From contig CAYHPN010000003.1 in assembly GCA_964358765.1 (NCBI GenBank), positions 43,327 through 107,326 of the forward strand: a stretch of 64,000 bases of DNA. Reading direction: 5' to 3'. Below are positions 20,486-58,224 of the stretch, in pieces; the stretch's first letter is position 1; each line of letters starts with the position of its first letter. Position numbers and translations under genes: made by a program. This stretch comes from Candidatus Woesearchaeota archaeon. GTDB lineage: Archaea; Nanobdellota; Nanobdellia; Pacearchaeales; GW2011-AR1. The notes under the pieces were generated by a model. That model had not been told where the DNA came from, ran no database searches, and was given only the letters and a program-made list of their open reading frames with translations.

Positions 20486-20616
20486 TTTTTCATTCCTCCA
20501 ATGATATTTTGCTTTGTCATGCCAAATAGAGCATAAAACATAATATAAGATCTATTACTTAAAATTGTATAAAAAAGGGAAAATTTATATACTATTTACC
20601 TTATTTTAATATATAG

Positions 20617-20818
20617 TAAATTATAACGAAAATAATTTCCTATGGAAATATAGTTATTTTATACGAAGTAAATTCGTCTAAAATAAAATTTATAGAAAAT
20701 TTGTAAAATTTTCTAATCCGACAATTTTGTATTAAAAATTAAAAAATTGTCGATATGAGAAGTTTGCTTTCGAATAAATTACTAAATGTGCTTTAGCACC
20801 CATGCCTGTTAAGGCATT
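20617..20818 (+). repeat. Intergenic repeat element, copy A (about 200 bp)
   Basis: It shares the 5' module taaattataacgaaaataatttccNatggaaatatagttatttt and the 3' module aaattactaaNtgtgcNNNagcac plus a terminal hairpin with copies at 34695, 54707 (rc) and 57639 (rc). It ends 12 nt before the ATG of the gene at 20830. Confidence 0.7.
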
Positions 20819-20829
20819 ATCTTAATAAT

Positions 20830-21789
20830 ATGGACTTGATAGATAAAAAAATACTCTGCGAACTTGATATTAATTGTAGAACTCCCTATAGTAAAATAGC
20901 AAAGAAACTTCGGATTGGAAGAAATGTATTTGATTATAGAGTTAAAAAATTAGAAAAAGAGAGTGTTATTACTAATTACATTTGTTCAATTAATCTTGGA
21001 AAATTAGGCTATAATACTTATAAGATATACTTTAAAATTAAGTCATCTAATATTGATAAAGAAAAGAGGTTTATTAATTTTATACTGGAAGATAAGAGAG
21101 CAATACACTTTCTCAAAACCGAAGGATCTTTCGATTATACTATTGCAGTTGCTGTGAAAGATATAAAGGAGCTAGATGAATTTATCTCTGAGTTAAGGGA
21201 TAATTTTAATGAAATAATAAATGACTATATGATAAGCATAGTTGTTTTTTCCAGAATTTTTAAATTGCATAAATTATTATTAAAAGAAAACAAAGAAATC
21301 ATTAAATTTGACAAATATGATAATAATAAAGATCAAATAACCTTAGATGATAAAGATAAAGTAATTTTAAAGACGCTTTCAAATAATGCAAAATTATCAA
21401 TCGTAGCATTATCGGAAGTAACGGGTTTAAGTATAGATATAATAAAATATAGGTTAAAGATTTTATCTAGTACTATTATAAGTTCATTTCGAATGATTCC
21501 GGATATAAATAAATTGGGTTTCTTTCATTATGTTGCTATGCTAAAAATTAGGAATTCTTCTATAAATGAAGAAAAAAACTTTGTAAATTGGTGCGCTAAT
21601 AAGTATAATATAATGTACTTAACAAAAAGAATTGGTTATTTTGATTATGAGCTTAACTTTGCTATTATGGATATTAAAGAACTAAACTCTTTTATCTCAG
21701 AACTAAAATTAAATTTCAATAATATTATAGATTCTTATGAACTCATAATAAATAGCAACTTGCTAAAATTAAATTATCTTCCTTTTTAA
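20830..21789 (+). CDS. Transcription regulator with two tandem Lrp/AsnC modules (HTH + RAM, duplicated)
   Basis: Two repeats of the pattern LDxxDxxILxxLxxNxRxSxxxIAxxxGLSxxxVxxRIKxL, each followed by a RAM-like domain. It is paralogous to 37572-38543. Confidence 0.65.
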   Translation: MDLIDKKILCELDINCRTPYSKIAKKLRIGRNVFDYRVKKLEKESVITNYICSINLGKLGYNTYKIYFKIKSSNIDKEKRFINFILEDKRAIHFLKTEGSFDYTIAVAVKDIKELDEFISELRDNFNEIINDYMISIVVFSRIFKLHKLLLKENKEIIKFDKYDNNKDQITLDDKDKVILKTLSNNAKLSIVALSEVTGLSIDIIKYRLKILSSTIISSFRMIPDINKLGFFHYVAMLKIRNSSINEEKNFVNWCANKYNIMYLTKRIGYFDYELNFAIMDIKELNSFISELKLNFNNIIDSYELIINSNLLKLNYLPF

Positions 21790-34372: not shown

Positions 34373-34687
34373 TTGCCCGATACAAGTATGAAAGATTGCG
34401 TACCTTATTGCTGCGATATGCGTGGAATGTTATCATTCTTAATTCTATTTTTACTTTCTAAAAAATCAATGCATGGACAAGAAATTGCTCTTGAATTAGA
34501 AAAAAGAAAAGGGGAAAAACCCTCTCCAGGAACAATCTATCCAGCATTAAAGCATCTTAAAAATGAAAAACTCATTTCTGAAAATAAAGAAGGCAAAAAT
34601 ATTTATTATTCTCTGACTAAAGAGGGTAAAGATGCTCTTAAAGTTGCAAAGATCAAATTTTGCACTATTTTTAAGGATGTTTTTTAA
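34373..34687 (+). CDS. PadR-family transcriptional regulator
   Basis: GMLSFLILFLLSKKSMHGQEI...GTIYPALKHLKNEKLI...YYSLTKEGKDAL is the PadR winged-helix pattern. Confidence 0.65.
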   Translation: MPDTSMKDCVPYCCDMRGMLSFLILFLLSKKSMHGQEIALELEKRKGEKPSPGTIYPALKHLKNEKLISENKEGKNIYYSLTKEGKDALKVAKIKFCTIFKDVF

Positions 34688-34694
34688 TATAATA

Positions 34695-34896
34695 TAAATT
34701 ATAACAAAAATAATTTCCCATGGAAATATAGTTATTTTGTCCAAAGTAAATTTGCTCAAAATAAGAATTTAGGCAACACTTGCTTTTGACTATCGGCAAT
34801 TCTGTTTTAAATTTGTCAAAATTGACGTATTAGAGAATTTAACAGAATTCTCTATAAATTACTAACTGTGCTTTAGCACTCTGCCCGAAGGATATT
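34695..34896 (+). repeat. Intergenic repeat element, copy B
   Basis: Same 5' and 3' modules as copy A. It lies between the PadR stop and the 35004 gene start. The spurious track ORF 34547-34759 is a translation of this repeat. Confidence 0.7.
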
Positions 34897-35003
34897 ATTT
34901 TATATTTTATTCTATTTATCTTTAGAGTTTAATACCTATAGGCTCACCTTATAGTATTAATGATGATAAAAAAGTTTATATCAGGCATCTATCTAATTTT
35001 TAA

Positions 35004-50621: not shown

Positions 50622-50645
50622 TAAACTTCTTAACTAATAAAATTT

Positions 50646-50742
50646 AATGCCCTGCGGGCAGTTCTATTATTGTAATTCATTCGGAAGTAAATTCCTCATG
50701 AATTCTATTTTGGCTAAATTTACTTTAGACAAAATAACTTCC
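50646..50742 (-). repeat. Partial, diverged copy (E) of the intergenic repeat element
   Basis: It shares aatgccctNcNggcag and attctattttggctaaatttactttagacaaaataact with copy C, and lacks the palindromic ccatgg module. It begins 25 nt after the oxidoreductase stop. Confidence 0.45.
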
Positions 50743-50945
50743 TTCTCATAAAGTTTTTATACTTTATATACTAAAATTTAATTGCTTTTCGTTTTGTCTT
50801 TGCAAAGTTTCAAAATATGAAGCATATATAATTTACATTGTAAATTTCTTAACTAATAAAGTTAAACCGTATATTGCTACACCAAGAAAAATTATCCATA
50901 ATAATATCTTAATCATAAACTCCATTTCAAATGCTTTTTTATTCA

Positions 50946-54385: not shown

Positions 54386-54419
54386 AAAGCAATATATAAT
54401 CTATTTTTCTAATATTAAC

Positions 54420-55196
54420 ATGGCATTAAATTTTATTTCAGAAAATAAAGAAAAATATCTGGAAATTAAAGAAATAATTCCTCAAATAAAAATGATTTCT
54501 CTCCAGCTTCCAGAGATTCAGGAAATAGACCCAAAAGCCATAATAGAGGGAAAATTAAAGTTCGCTATGAAAAAACAAAAGGGTGAACTTTTCTGTGAAG
54601 ATACTTCTCTTTATATCAACTGTTTAAATGGTTTTCCAGGTCCTCTAATCAAGTGGATTCTCAAATCTCTCACCGATAAAGGATTAGCAGAATTAGTCTT
54701 AAAATAATGCCCTTCAGGCAGGGTGCAGATGCACATTTAGTAATTTAGTCAAAAGGCAAGTGTTGCCTAAATTCTTATTTTGGGCAAATTTACTTTGAAC
54801 AAAATAACTATATTTCCAATGGAAATTATTTTCGTTATAATTTACATTAGATTGAAATATAAAGATCATTCAGTAATTGCTAAAACAGTAATAGGATATA
54901 CTGATGGAAAAGAAATAAAATATTTCCAAGGTTCTATAGCTGGAAAGATTGTTTTACCTAAAGGAAATAACGGATTTGGCTGGGATAAAATATTCCTTCC
55001 ATTAAACTCAAATAAAACTTTTGGAGAAATGACTTCCTCTGAAAAGAATAAAATAAGTATGAGAAAAATAGCTGCACTAAACCTAAAAGATTATTTAAAT
55101 TCAACCGCCACTTCTTCTCAAGGTTATATAATTATTAATTATCAACCCTACAATCAAAACAGAAACAATATGTCCAGTAAATGCAGCAATAATTGA
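54420..55196 (+). pseudogene. Ham1/RdgB-family non-canonical NTP pyrophosphatase (ITPase) split by insertion of repeat copy C
   Basis: The N-terminal half (to 54707) MALNFISENKEKYLEIKEI...LFCEDTSLYINCLNGFPGPLIKW matches the Ham1 N-terminus. The C-terminal half (from about 54858) YKDHSVIAKTVIGY...GNNGFGWDKIFLP...KTFGEMTSSEKNKISMRKIA matches the Ham1 C-terminus (FKTVIGY..GYGFAYDSIFIP..TFAEMTTEEKSQISHRKKA). A stop-containing insert of about 150 nt separates them. Confidence 0.7.
54707..54859 (-). mobile_element. Repeat element copy C (MITE-like) inserted inside the ITPase gene, flanked by an AAATA (possibly TTRAAATA) direct duplication
   Basis: Its reverse complement carries the full 5' module taaattataacgaaaataatttccattggaaatatagttatttt and the 3' module aaattactaaatgtgcatctgcac-cctgcctgaagggcatt. 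Left junction cttaaaata|atgccc; right junction gattgaaata|taaagat. Confidence 0.7.
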
Positions 55197-55772
55197 AACT
55201 AGCCTAGCCGCGCCCATTGGACAGATATCTCCATATCCTACAGTAAAAAAAGTAACTGCACTAAAATAGAAGAAATCTCTTGAAATTAAGTTATCTGTTC
55301 CTATCATTTGATTATTAAAATCGCTTGTACATCCACCATACCTTATATATCCTCTTCCAGTTAATTCTACGATATTAAAGACCGTAGCAAAAATAAATAA
55401 AATCCCAAATAAGAATAATGCATACGCTCCAATTAAAGACAAGAGATTTTTGGGTTTTAATAAATGATCAATAAACCCTTTGACCATATAGCCCATAACA
55501 ATAATAAAATAAATAGCAATTAATATTTCTATAAATACTATTGGCAATCTTACTTTGTAAATTTTAGGATAATATTTTAATATATTTGAGAGTACTACAT
55601 AAACTAAAATTAATAAAACAAATTTGGTTAACGGTCTATTAAAAAGTATTCTCCTCATACCATGAATTTCTTTCCCTCTTTTAATTATAGCCTTCACTCT
55701 CTTTTTCATAAATAATTTAAGATTTTCTTGTTTAAAAGTCTTCTGAAAAGATGTATCTGCAAAGTCTCGCAA
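55101..55772 (-). CDS. Two-TM potassium channel (KcsA-like pore)
   Basis: The selectivity filter TVGYGD is flanked by TM helices (FFYFSAVTFFTVGYGDICPMGAARLVSIIAAF). Confidence 0.75.
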   Translation of the reverse strand: MRDFADTSFQKTFKQENLKLFMKKRVKAIIKRGKEIHGMRRILFNRPLTKFVLLILVYVVLSNILKYYPKIYKVRLPIVFIEILIAIYFIIVMGYMVKGFIDHLLKPKNLLSLIGAYALFLFGILFIFATVFNIVELTGRGYIRYGGCTSDFNNQMIGTDNLISRDFFYFSAVTFFTVGYGDICPMGAARLVSIIAAFTGHIVSVLIVGLIINNYITLRRSGG

Positions 55773-55783
55773 AACTCTAGTAA

Positions 55784-57517
55784 TTACCCAGATTCTTTAT
55801 TCTCATCTTCATCTTTAGTGTCCTCATCGGCATCTGTTTCATTATCATTATCCAAATCATCATCTGTTTTTTCATCGTCATCAGTTTTTGTTTCTTTTTG
55901 TTCAAATTTTTTTAGTGCTGATTCTACTTCTAAAACGGTCACTCCTAATCTTGCTGCAACTTCTGATAAAATAACCGCCTTATCTCCTGATTCTATCCTC
56001 GATGAATCCTTCACCCCTTCCCATTCGTATTTTACATCTGCAATAGTTTTACCATCTTTTTCTTTAACTTTTATCTCAACCTTCCTTTCCTTATTCTCTT
56101 CAAGGTCATTTTCTTCCTCGATTCTGGCTACTATTCGTAATTGATCTATTGTTAAAGCATTTGTTTGTTCAACAATATCAGCATAAATTTCTTCAGAAGT
56201 AATTCCACTTATAAATCTTAATTTAAATTTAATTTCAGCTCTTGTTTCTCCATTCTCTTTTCGTTCTAGATCAATTTTTACCCTCAATCTTTCCTTGCTT
56301 ATAAACTCTTCCTCGCTTCCATCATCTGTTTCATTTTCATCAGAATCATCATCTTCTGCATCTTCATCTAATTCATCAGAATCATCCTCTGTTTCATCCT
56401 CCTCCCGTTCGTCAGAATCCTCATCTTCTGCATCTTCATCTAATTCATCAGAATCCCCATCTTCGTTTTCTGTATCATTATTGTCTGAATCGTCATCAGC
56501 ACTATCTTCATCGTCATTGTTTGATGATCCAGTCGCTTGACCAGTAATTAAAGAATTATCTGAATTTTCTTCAGATCCATCTTCATCTAATTCATCAGAA
56601 TCTTCATCATTTGTTTCATTTTCATCCTGTTCGTCAGAATCATCATCTTCATTTTCATTCTCTAACTCATCAACCATCCCTGCAGACTCAGAATCATCTG
56701 CTCCTTCCTCAATCTTAGTTATCGTTTTTGCTTCATCTTGAGTAGTCGTTACTTGTGCTAGGGTTTTTTGCAGTAAGTCCTCAACTGTCAATAATGTTGA
56801 TGATTCTGTTTTTTCTTTAAAACTATATTCTACAGTTACTACAGAAACATTACCTATAATTTCTGCTTTTATTCGCTTATCTTCTCTTAATTCGTCCAGT
56901 TCATTTCTTATCTCTAACCTTGATCTACCTAGTTTTTCTTCAAATTTAATTAAAGATGTAGACTCTGCATCATCAATTTTCCCTTTTATGTTTTCTAACA
57001 CCCCCTCAACACCTAACAATTCTTGCAATACTAATCTTCTTTGTTCAAGAGTTAATTCTGAAAGTAAATCTTGTAATTGTGTCAGTTCCTCTTCTTGTAA
57101 AGAAAGAGTTTTCTCAACAGTTATAACATCTCTTAATATGTCTTCATCTTTTGCTTCATTTAATCGCTCTTCAATTCTAACTCTTACTTTCTCAAGAATT
57201 TTTTCATGTGATTCTTTAGCTTCTCTTATTTTTTCTTGTTTTCCTTTCTTACTCATTAATTTTATTTCTTCAAATCTTTCCTCAGCAATCCTTAAACCCG
57301 TAGTTTCCTTATCCTTGGAAAAAGTATATTTCAAATTATCCCAAGTCTTATCTAAACTATAAAACATACTTTCCGGTGTTGTTCCAGCCTCAATATCTTC
57401 AAACTCTGAATCTATTTCTTCAATACTTAAAGTAGAATCATCAATCTCCCCAGTAGCAAAAGGCATTACTAAAAAAAGAAAGATTATTACAAAATAGAAA
57501 TACTTCTTCAACCTCAT
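55784..57517 (-). CDS. Secreted, extremely acidic D/E-rich repeat protein
   Basis: Signal-peptide-like MRLKKYFYFVIIFLFLVMPFATG (the track starts 24 codons earlier at a TTG). There are long runs of DSDELDEDAEDEDSDEREEDETEDD with nucleotide-level tandem repeats around 56290-56680. Confidence 0.5.
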   Translation of the reverse strand: MRLKKYFYFVIIFLFLVMPFATGEIDDSTLSIEEIDSEFEDIEAGTTPESMFYSLDKTWDNLKYTFSKDKETTGLRIAEERFEEIKLMSKKGKQEKIREAKESHEKILEKVRVRIEERLNEAKDEDILRDVITVEKTLSLQEEELTQLQDLLSELTLEQRRLVLQELLGVEGVLENIKGKIDDAESTSLIKFEEKLGRSRLEIRNELDELREDKRIKAEIIGNVSVVTVEYSFKEKTESSTLLTVEDLLQKTLAQVTTTQDEAKTITKIEEGADDSESAGMVDELENENEDDDSDEQDENETNDEDSDELDEDGSEENSDNSLITGQATGSSNNDDEDSADDDSDNNDTENEDGDSDELDEDAEDEDSDEREEDETEDDSDELDEDAEDDDSDENETDDGSEEEFISKERLRVKIDLERKENGETRAEIKFKLRFISGITSEEIYADIVEQTNALTIDQLRIVARIEEENDLEENKERKVEIKVKEKDGKTIADVKYEWEGVKDSSRIESGDKAVILSEVAARLGVTVLEVESALKKFEQKETKTDDDEKTDDDLDNDNETDADEDTKDEDENKESG

Positions 57518-57638
57518 AAAAAAAGAATATCCAACCTCCTTTAAATATCTTCCGGCAATAGCAAATTTTAGACTTCTCTTTTTTTCCAAACCATTAAAAT
57601 TATGTAAGAAATTTTCATGTCATCTAAGCAATCAAGAA

Positions 57639-57780
57639 AATGCCCTTTCAGAGCAAAGTGCTTACGCACATTTAGTAATTTAGTTCAAAAGTAAATTTTG
57701 AATAAATTCTTATTTTAGACGAATTAAATTCGTTTAAAATAGCTATATTTCCATGGGAAATTATTTTCATTATAATTTAC
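57639..57780 (-). repeat. Intergenic repeat element, copy D
   Basis: The reverse complement reads taaattataatgaaaataatttcccatggaaatatagctatttt...aaattactaaatgtgcgtaagcac...gaaagggcatt. It is oriented toward, and about 120 nt upstream of, the acidic protein gene on the minus strand. Confidence 0.7.
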
Positions 57781-58224
57781 TATATATTATATAATATCTG
57801 TTAACAATTATTTGTAATAAATGGTATTCTCATTTACAACTGGAATATTGCTTAATTGTCTCAATGTGCTAAAGGATTTTATTGGCTCACCCATATTATT
57901 AATAAACTACATCTTTTGCAAAGGCTCAAAGTCTTAATATCTATAGTCAATTATAATAAAAATTAAGTTATTAACCTTAGTCAAGTTAGAAAAATTATTC
58001 TGTCGTAAGACGAATAGTTTTTCAGTCAAATTTCAAAATCCATTCTCTTTTCGTTCTAGATCAATTTTTAACTAAACAATCGTATTTCTTTTATGGATAA
58101 CTGCATTGTTTATGTGACAAATTCTCGGCAGTTGTCCATTAGAGGACTGTGTACAAAATATTATATAACCTACGCAGTTCCCTATAGCAAATGCGAAAAG
58201 ATATAAATAATCTCTTTAACATTA

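Follow-up and report, generated by a model that had tools for sequence, protein, structure and literature searches.

The palindrome-associated transposable elements (PATEs) of the archaeon Haloquadratum walsbyi lack inverted terminal repeats and target duplications, possess near-terminal palindromes and a short 5' targeting sequence, and are too short for a transposase (PMC3119063). Other small repeats suited to comparison are the classical MITEs (miniature transposable elements with inverted repeats), such as Correia/NEMIS of Neisseria and SM1-4 of Sulfolobus, and the Rickettsia palindromic elements (RPEs). In our study, we analysed a stretch of 64,000 nucleotides from a Candidatus Woesearchaeota archaeon (contig CAYHPN010000003.1; hereafter the window), in which the gene of a Ham1-type inosine triphosphatase (ITPase) was found to be interrupted by one copy (copy C) of a hairpin-rich repeat. 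That a small repeat disrupts a dispensable gene by insertion is routine biology, and for DPANN archaea there is, to our knowledge, hardly any catalogue of mobile elements. Judged from the sequence, this non-autonomous mobile repeat probably knocked out a dispensable Ham1 gene whose loss was tolerated; we put the probability of this reading at about 0.72.

The repeat was found to resemble PATEs and the terminal-only archaeal derivatives of IS200/IS605 in being without inverted terminal repeats or a demonstrable duplication, in having near-terminal palindromes and a short conserved 5'-flank sequence, and in being too short for a transposase; it also has heterogeneous copies which target other copies (the tandem copies L009p and L009f). 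It differs from PATEs in a flank motif of 8 nt against the usual 4–6 nt, in a left hairpin which begins 1–2 nt from the boundary, in left and right hairpins unrelated in sequence, in consisting of hairpins as a whole and not at the ends alone, and in its DPANN host. Among the scanned open reading frames (ORFs) of the window and the copy-bearing contigs, no parent of the IS605 type (TnpA/TnpB) that shares its ends was found. With classical MITEs it shares size, copy number, a mostly intergenic location, the occasional disruption of a gene or promoter and a folded structure with compensatory changes, whereas its terminal inverted repeats are not significant and a duplication is not demonstrable. 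The repeat resembles the IS605-derived PATEs more than a classical MITE; the family is so far undescribed, yet of a known kind, that of PATE- or MITE-like non-autonomous elements. Like an RPE, copy C is a small palindromic repeat within a gene that is conserved; its 153 nt are divisible by three, and the frame is kept downstream. RPEs are translated within the host protein, however, which copy C cannot be because it contains four in-frame stops.

The interrupted Ham1 gene

The Ham1 locus was found to contain the following features.

54386–54399, + strand: Ham1 promoter 14-mer AAAGCAATATATAA, 34 nt before ATG 54420 (position weight matrix, PWM, score 4.3)
54420–54707, + strand: N-terminal half of Ham1/ITPase, 95 codons, then a TAA made at the insertion junction (Pfam PF01725)
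54699–54706, + strand: left 8-mer TTAAAATA, Ham1's own codons TTA AAA TA(T) (aligned copies and flanks, homologue DNA)
54707–54859, + strand: repeat copy C, the Ham1 insert of 153 nt (nhmmer E 2.6e-48, alignment, covariation)
54819–54857, + strand: repeat-derived in-frame codons MEIIFVIIYIRLK, the gene callers' start of the C-half (P0004, PWM scores −3.3 or lower)
54852–54859, + strand: right (3' terminal) 8-mer TTGAAATA of copy C (copy alignment)
54858–55103, + strand: C-terminal half of Ham1/ITPase proper, Y96 to S177 (Pfam PF01725, homologue alignment)
55104–55196, + strand: tail of Ham1, 30 codons and the stop, without counterpart in any homologue

The N-half ORF extended from ATG 54420 to TAA 54705–54707 and encoded 95 amino acids with the C-terminal end GLAELVLK. 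The second ORF was open in the identical frame from TTG 54780 to TGA 55194–55196 (54780–55196) and began with repeat-derived codons; the recognisable Ham1 protein in it began at TTG 54852, with TTG AAA TAT AAA GAT CAT (LKYKDHS; TAT at 54858). The N-half matched positions 2–95 of the PF01725 profile (E 2e-13) and the C-half positions 107–185 (E 1.5e-20), and the two halves joined in silico gave one PF01725 stretch covering profile positions 2–185 with 132 bits (curated cut-off 22.5). The joined protein reads ...ELVLKYKDHS..., and the empty site as built in silico was ...GAATTAGTCTTAAAATATAAAGATCATTCAG..., with the junction GTCTTAAAATATAAAGATCAT. At the join the reconstructed DNA was GTC TTA AAA TAT AAA GAT CAT, and that of the best near full-length homologue (P0001, 69% identity) was GTG TTA AAA TAC AAA GAC CAT; the homologue DNA at the insertion point was GTGTTAAAATACAAAGAC. 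The net insertion into Ham1 (54699 to 54852) was 153 nt, a multiple of three, and the frame was preserved. The first base of copy C completes the TAA which ends the N-half after residue 95, and the four in-frame stops of the insert were found at 54705, 54738, 54741, and 54768.

A database search with the joined Ham1 gave 352 matches at E <= 1e-5, and the named ones were mostly from Pacearchaeota, Woesearchaeota or Nanoarchaeota. Among the best 120 of the 352, 113 were near full-length and uninterrupted (170–195 aa). The only short entries in these best 120 were P0004, which is the C-half as a called gene of 125 aa and the only 100% match, and P0058, which was truncated at its N-terminus with the junction intact. 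No one-piece Ham1 above 69% identity was found among assembled database proteins. The join falls where the homologues read ...AELVLKYKDHSA(I/V)AKTVIGY... (P0001, ...AELVLKYKDHSAIAKTVIGY...), and the alignment was gap-free, as it was against the solved ITPases 8ji1 and 2car. The N-half is recorded publicly as a separate gene of 95 aa, and the records of both halves are singleton clusters. An ancestral natural split of Ham1 was ruled out, since the homologues are uninterrupted and the same split was found in no related genome. The contig of the closest homologue (L016) was rejected as a positional orthologue because its neighbouring genes differ.

Outside the insert, Ham1 contained no further stops or frameshifts. 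In an alignment of 67 sequences the joined protein kept all family-invariant residues, i.e. K12, E15, E32, D61-T62, P73-G74-P75, K78-W79, F118, G124, K158, and R164, and its score against the family hidden Markov model (HMM) was 277 bits, within the homologue range of 266–310; by both measures no gene decay was seen. Its identity to three homologues (P0002, P0003, and P0006) was 4–9 points below the identity of P0001 to the same three, which could be due to phylogeny or to mild acceleration. The initial annotation had described one Ham1 gene split by a repeat copy, its halves contiguous in the family and otherwise intact, and these results bear it out.

By exact protein match, the locus was traced to metagenomes assembled from well H43 at the groundwater observatory of Hainich. 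Two contigs from different assemblies (L001 and L004) contained both Ham1 halves and the identical insert with unique flanks on either side, and two others (L002 and L003) began within the repeat. Since L001 and L004 are independent assemblies with this insert, the window is very unlikely to be misassembled here.

In the AlphaFold model of the joined Ham1 (mean predicted local distance difference test score, pLDDT, 90.8) the break K95|Y96 lay within the loop 94–99, between helix 77–93 and strand 100–110. The tail of 30 residues (55104–55193) was modelled as disordered (pLDDT 53–59); in the homologues the C-terminus is ...LKDYLNS or lies no more than about 10 residues from it, and the stop codon of Ham1 might have been lost. 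This tail, with the preceding codon and the stop, overlapped by 96 nt (55101–55196) a convergent K+ channel gene (55101–55772) identified by its Ion_trans_2 match. The Ham1 codon TCA at 55101–55103 is the antisense of the TGA stop of the channel gene.

The repeat family, its ends and its target site

Besides copy C, the window was found to contain four copies of the repeat, all identified by nhmmer and alignment.

20602–20825, − strand: copy A, long form
34680–34903, − strand: copy B, long form
about 50639–50765 (end approximate), + strand: copy E, subfamily with a different 3' end
57632–57794, + strand: copy D, short form, in a divergent intergenic region

The inventory, made by repeat finding, alignment and an nhmmer profile, comprised five window copies (A–E) and at least 7 further copies in other H43 contigs (L006a, L006b, L007a, L007b, L009f, which is the copy of L008, L009p, and L012). 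The repeat was thus present in at least 12 copies at different loci, 79–96% identical and about 155–230 nt in length. In the orientation of copy C the element contained, from 5' to 3', hairpin H1 (ATGCC-loop-GGCA), hairpin H2 (GTGC-loop-GCAC), the conserved TTTAGTAATT, the composite hairpin H3 closed by AATTTAG/CTAAATT, hairpin H4 (TTATTTTGGGCAAA-TTTAC-TTTGAACAAAATAA), hairpin H5 (ATTTCC-loop-GGAAAT), and the tail TTTCGTTATAATTTAC-ATTATATT-RAAATA. Copy C comprised H1–H5, the tail TTATAATTTAC, which is conserved, and TTGAAATA as its 3' terminal 8-mer. The long forms A and B contained two extra hairpin modules within H3 (20690–20760 and 34800–34870), in an order swapped between A and B, which suggests modular expansion or nested insertion. 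These modules read CGACAATTTT...AAAATTGTCG, together with TAGAAAATTT...AAATTTTCTA or TAGAGAATT...AATTCTCTA. A second subfamily (window 50639–50765; L009 7397–7528, which is L009p; L026 2793–2873) was devoid of H5 and of the TTATAATTTAC tail and ended in ...CCATAAAsTTGTyTAAAGTTTATAT..., where a promoter-like AAAG-TTTATAT box was present (PWM 8.1 in copy E).

The structure was examined for covariation in an alignment of 11 copies with a hand-drawn structure, 500 column shuffles, and partner slides of 1–3 columns. Paired cells amounted to 93%, and 12 of the 34 stem pairs were changed on both sides, values reached by none of the 500 shuffles; when the partners were slid by 1–3 columns, pairing fell to 29–49%. 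Nearly all changes were from Watson-Crick to Watson-Crick, and G-U cells were found in 1 of 314. This near-lack of G-U pairs suggests that the hairpins are recognised as DNA or are needed on both strands, and template switching that corrects palindromes could produce the same covariation without selection. The folding energy was alike on both strands (−30 to −51 kcal/mol), and the assignment of a strand by folding energy was rejected since both strands fold equally well. A small-RNA gene on the reverse strand, with its own TATA box and a T-run terminator, was considered and rejected, being without PWM support.

Outside this population the repeat was searched for in several collections. In the one-genome-per-species contigs of GTDB, among which the source genome is not included, a conserved 25-mer pattern gave just a chance match in a Chloroflexota metagenome-assembled genome (MAG). 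In the IMG/VR contigs the specific pattern gave nothing, and of the 7 loci found with a degenerate H4 pattern none matched the repeat HMM. No match to the insert was found by blastn in plasmid and phage collections, and none for further copies by a protein search with the doubled repeat-encoded peptide. With Rfam 15, only two tRNAs reached the gathering score in the window, and the insert region at E <= 10 gave just chance matches of 10–16 bits. The literature on MITEs in DPANN archaea and in Hainich MAGs contained nothing specific to the repeat. No transposase domain was found in 20 ORFs of the window, 6 of which were without a Pfam match, nor in the contigs carrying copies. Empty-site alleles looked for via the neighbouring genes were not found; every contig with the AsnC-type gene next to copy A contained copy A, and the MsrA protein was without a record. 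Because neither a partner nor an empty-site allele was found, we infer the mobility of the repeat from its distribution alone.

The AAATA repeat flanking the insert, which the initial annotation had taken for a target-site duplication, is real and extends to TTAAAATA on the left and TTGAAATA on the right, with 7 of 8 positions alike. The right 8-mer TTGAAATA, however, was common to copy C and L006a, which lies at an unrelated locus beside a different neighbouring gene, and TTATATAA was common to D and L007a; because such variants are common to copies at different loci, the right 8-mer travels with the element. The left 8-mer just 5' of ATGCC was TTAAGATA in three unrelated copies (A, L012, and L009f), whose right 8-mers (TTAAAATA, TTTAAAAA, and TTTAAATA, respectively) differ from it. 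No similarity was found past the 8-mers. The left-flank 8-mers overall were TTAAGATA (three copies), TTAAAATA, ATAAAATA, TCAAGAAA, AAAATTTA, and ACAAGTTA, which fit a recurrent TTAARATA motif just 5' of the copies. The right 8-mer being inherited with the element and the left one identical in three unrelated copies, the duplication was not upheld as specific to each copy. Terminal inverted repeats were not significant in six full copies (best 7–11 of 16 positions, shuffle p 0.04–0.98). Of the features of a MITE in the strict sense, the repeat has the small size, the non-coding sequence and the multiple copies; its ends show neither significant terminal inverted repeats nor a copy-specific duplication. 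The insertion had also been called, as one option, very recent, a view weakened by an identity of only 92–96% between copy C and its nearest relatives.

The simplest description of these ends is that a unit [ATGCC ... TTRAAATA] inserts directly 3' of a sequence like TTAARATA without duplicating anything. Site-specific recombination with crossover in the shared 8-mer core fits equally well; a MITE of the DDE type, which would duplicate 8 bp, is a poor fit. For the mobility itself, a motif-directed, duplication-free insertion like that of the IS200/IS605-derived PATEs would fit best. In L009 a full copy directly followed another copy, one of the second subfamily with its different 3' end; between them lay TTAAGATA, which may be the terminal motif of the first copy. 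Of the TTAARATA sites in the window 23 of 36 were coding, against 1 of 5 repeat copies, which is consistent with selection against genic insertions.

Expression signals and competing explanations

A promoter PWM was learned from 37 genes of the window. In 24 of the 37 a BRE/TATA 14-mer (TFB recognition element and TATA box; consensus AAAAATTTATAAAT) began precisely 34 nt ahead of the start codon, a spacing which implies leaderless mRNAs; genes inside operons contained ribosome-binding sites of the GGAGG type. The in-frame starts ahead of the C-half were TTG 54780, TTG 54795, ATG 54819, and TTG 54852. At none of them was a promoter found (the best PWM near the required spacing was −0.2 to −5.5, and at exactly −34 it was −6 to −15), and no GGAGG-type (Shine-Dalgarno) site was present before any of them. 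An outward promoter in the repeat was also rejected, since no site in the short-form copies scored above 4.4 by the PWM on either of the strands, whereas the median of real promoters was 8.3. The element had been credited in the initial annotation with a start and possibly a promoter for the C-half; the start is there in the form of the in-frame ATG 54819, whereas the promoter finds no support in the PWM or in a Shine-Dalgarno site. As predicted from these signals, the N-fragment should be made and the C-fragment most likely not, because of the four stops and of the missing promoter or ribosome-binding site of this genome's kind.

In the knockout that we favour, the non-autonomous, hairpin-rich repeat would have inserted directly 3' of Ham1's own TTAAAATA (codons Leu-Lys-Ty..), its first base would complete a TAA, and translation from the Ham1 promoter would end after residue 95. 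The C-terminal 112 codons would then lie in frame behind four stops and be unexpressed, and the knockout would have been tolerated and fixed in a low-abundance DPANN population. We infer both the loss of enzyme function and the age of the insertion. Several points weigh against a knockout. Both halves retain every invariant residue and the joined score lies within the family range; the repeat provides an in-frame ATG (54819) ahead of the C-half; the surface loop 94–99 is, in the model, a permissive position for a split; and neither a transposase nor another autonomous partner was found in the scanned ORFs and contigs, nor an empty-site allele. The undecayed halves fit a young knockout and also a two-piece enzyme that is still under selection.

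An unlikely alternative, though the best placed of those considered, is a reversible switch, in which Ham1 and the AsnC-type gene next to copy A would be toggled between OFF and ON by seamless excision of DNA, through a single-strand HUH transposase or recombination at the 8-mers. Removal of 54707–54859, or of any register in the 8-mer repeat, restores the exact ORF and no duplication need remain; the ends are PATE-like (left target motif, hairpins, no terminal inverted repeats), and Ham1 is undecayed. However, no uninterrupted allele above 69% identity was found among assembled database proteins and no transposase in the scanned ORFs of the window or in related contigs; with a coverage of merely 3–5x, rare alleles would escape. 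A wider view, which we hold to be similarly doubtful, takes the repeat as a new DPANN hairpin family, directed by a target motif and duplication-free, which might move as single-stranded DNA by an HUH-type enzyme or by an RNA-guided recombinase; its seamless exit would make its insertions in Ham1 and in the promoter of the AsnC-type gene reversible switches and not dead ends, and the few G-U pairs would be a footprint of DNA-hairpin recognition.

A functional split is slightly less probable still. In this case residues 1–95 and a C-fragment whose start is ATG 54819 or TTG 54780, both made, for example on one read-through transcript, would assemble non-covalently into an active ITPase, as in Nanoarchaeum. 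The halves are intact with all invariant residues, the break lies in a loop between secondary-structure elements, and the repeat brings an in-frame ATG, the two ORFs being called separately. The DPANN host and the two ORFs which correspond to contiguous enzyme halves split in a loop recall split protein genes known from Nanoarchaeum equitans and further DPANN archaea. Unlike these, the Ham1 halves lie next to each other in one frame with a mobile repeat between them, the second half is without expression signals, and the relatives have their gene in one piece. No promoter at the fixed −34 spacing and no Shine-Dalgarno site serves any in-frame start, the C-fragment would have a hydrophobic leader derived from the repeat (MEIIFVIIYI...), and the arrangement was found in no other genome. 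The residues which form ITPase active sites come from both halves, and on what is established of the ITPase fold an active enzyme would require both sets.

Removal of the insert at the RNA level, by a bulge-helix-bulge intron or a self-splicing RNA, or its bypass by a ribosomal hop from AAA-UAA (54702–54707) to AAA-UAU (54855–54860), as in T4 gene 60, is very improbable. The Lys codons match across the insert, the stop follows the take-off codon and is followed by hairpin H1, and the insert length is a multiple of three. In sequence, and by analogy only, these matched codons, the stop after take-off and the hairpin at the start of the gap resemble T4 gene 60 and the yeast mitochondrial byp elements; their gaps, however, are of 27–55 nt against 153 nt here, and no sign of a nascent-peptide signal was seen. 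The gap is about 3x as long as the longest bypass known and contains further AAA codons. A bulge-helix-bulge has two 3-nt bulges on either side of a 4-bp helix, with helices flanking them; the best candidate that restores the ORF had just 3 of the 4 pairs in its central helix and runs of 3 and 1 pairs in the flanking ones, and no Rfam intron or ribozyme was found at permissive thresholds. The other copies are intergenic, so that the element appears unadapted to ORFs. RNA-level excision had been left open in the earlier annotation; the ORF-restoring splice pairs and the neighbouring registers contained no such motif, which together with the Rfam result speaks against it.

An assembly artefact, in which a repeat copy was misplaced between the halves of an intact gene, can be set aside as just as improbable: although breaks at the repeat are frequent in the contigs of this population (L002, L003, L006–L008) and L026 changes flank inside a copy, the window, L001 and L004 have the insertion in identical form between flanks that are unique on either side, the sequence of copy C is its own, only 92–96% identical to the others, and its precise in-frame position beside a recurrent target motif would be atypical of a chimera.

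Other insertions and significance of the family

Copy A was found between an orphan promoter box and the ATG 20830 of a gene for an AsnC/Lrp-type regulator (20830–21789), whose helix-turn-helix domain begins at residue 1.

20579–20592, + strand: orphan BRE/TATA box GAAAATTTATATAC (PWM 10.9)

When 216 nt were removed in silico, the orphan box was 35 nt from ATG 20830, against a genome mode of 34, and copy A appears to be a further disruptive insertion, the second of this family. The right end of copy B provides the last two codons and the TAA stop (34680–34687) of a PadR gene (34373–34687), and the native C-terminus of the PadR protein may have been replaced via copy B. In L009 (7190–7575, − strand) a promoter-like box was followed exactly 34 nt downstream by an ATG (7539) which runs into the tandem repeats, one of the partial type and one full; joining ...ACAAGTTA to the flank after the second copy gave an open ORF of 36 codons, MYKIKDKQVNSMIESPLSDSERNLREIIIDQVDKIV, possibly a third interrupted gene. 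These cases are consistent with a mobile, mildly deleterious repeat whose genic insertions are mostly purged, Ham1 being a tolerated exception.

In L026 (2700–3010, compared with window 20530–20840) the AsnC-type gene and the left part of copy A were identical to the window. The contig then switched inside the repeat to the right part of the other subfamily and to an entirely different upstream flank with a GluRS/GlnRS-type tRNA synthetase, a switch due either to chimeric assembly at the repeat or to a rearrangement that the repeat mediated in a co-existing strain. Elsewhere in the window, an ORF of 601 aa (55784–57589, − strand) contained a long, extremely acidic, Asp/Glu-rich region of imperfect tandem DNA repeats (D1, 56310–56672); it is listed with a TTG start, and a promoter box at the usual spacing was absent. 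The repeat peptide MAKFTLNKITIFPMEIIFVIIYI (from 54780–54857) also heads an unrelated ORF in L007 (387–1013), the two N-termini being MGKFTLNKITIFPMEIIFVIIYI... and MAKFTLNKITIFPMEIIFVIIYI....

At the Ham1 locus gene callers yield two fake genes, one of 95 aa and one of 125 aa whose N-terminus is encoded by the repeat, an artefact to be filtered in DPANN MAGs which recurs wherever the repeat precedes an open frame. The Ham1 site is a natural comparison of a filled with an empty target, which fixes the element boundaries to the base with no duplication needed. The repeat family is well defined, with covarying hairpins and a recurrent TTAARATA flank, and with neither terminal inverted repeats nor a target-site duplication. 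For the organism, the loss of the ITPase could slightly raise mutation rates in the lineage.

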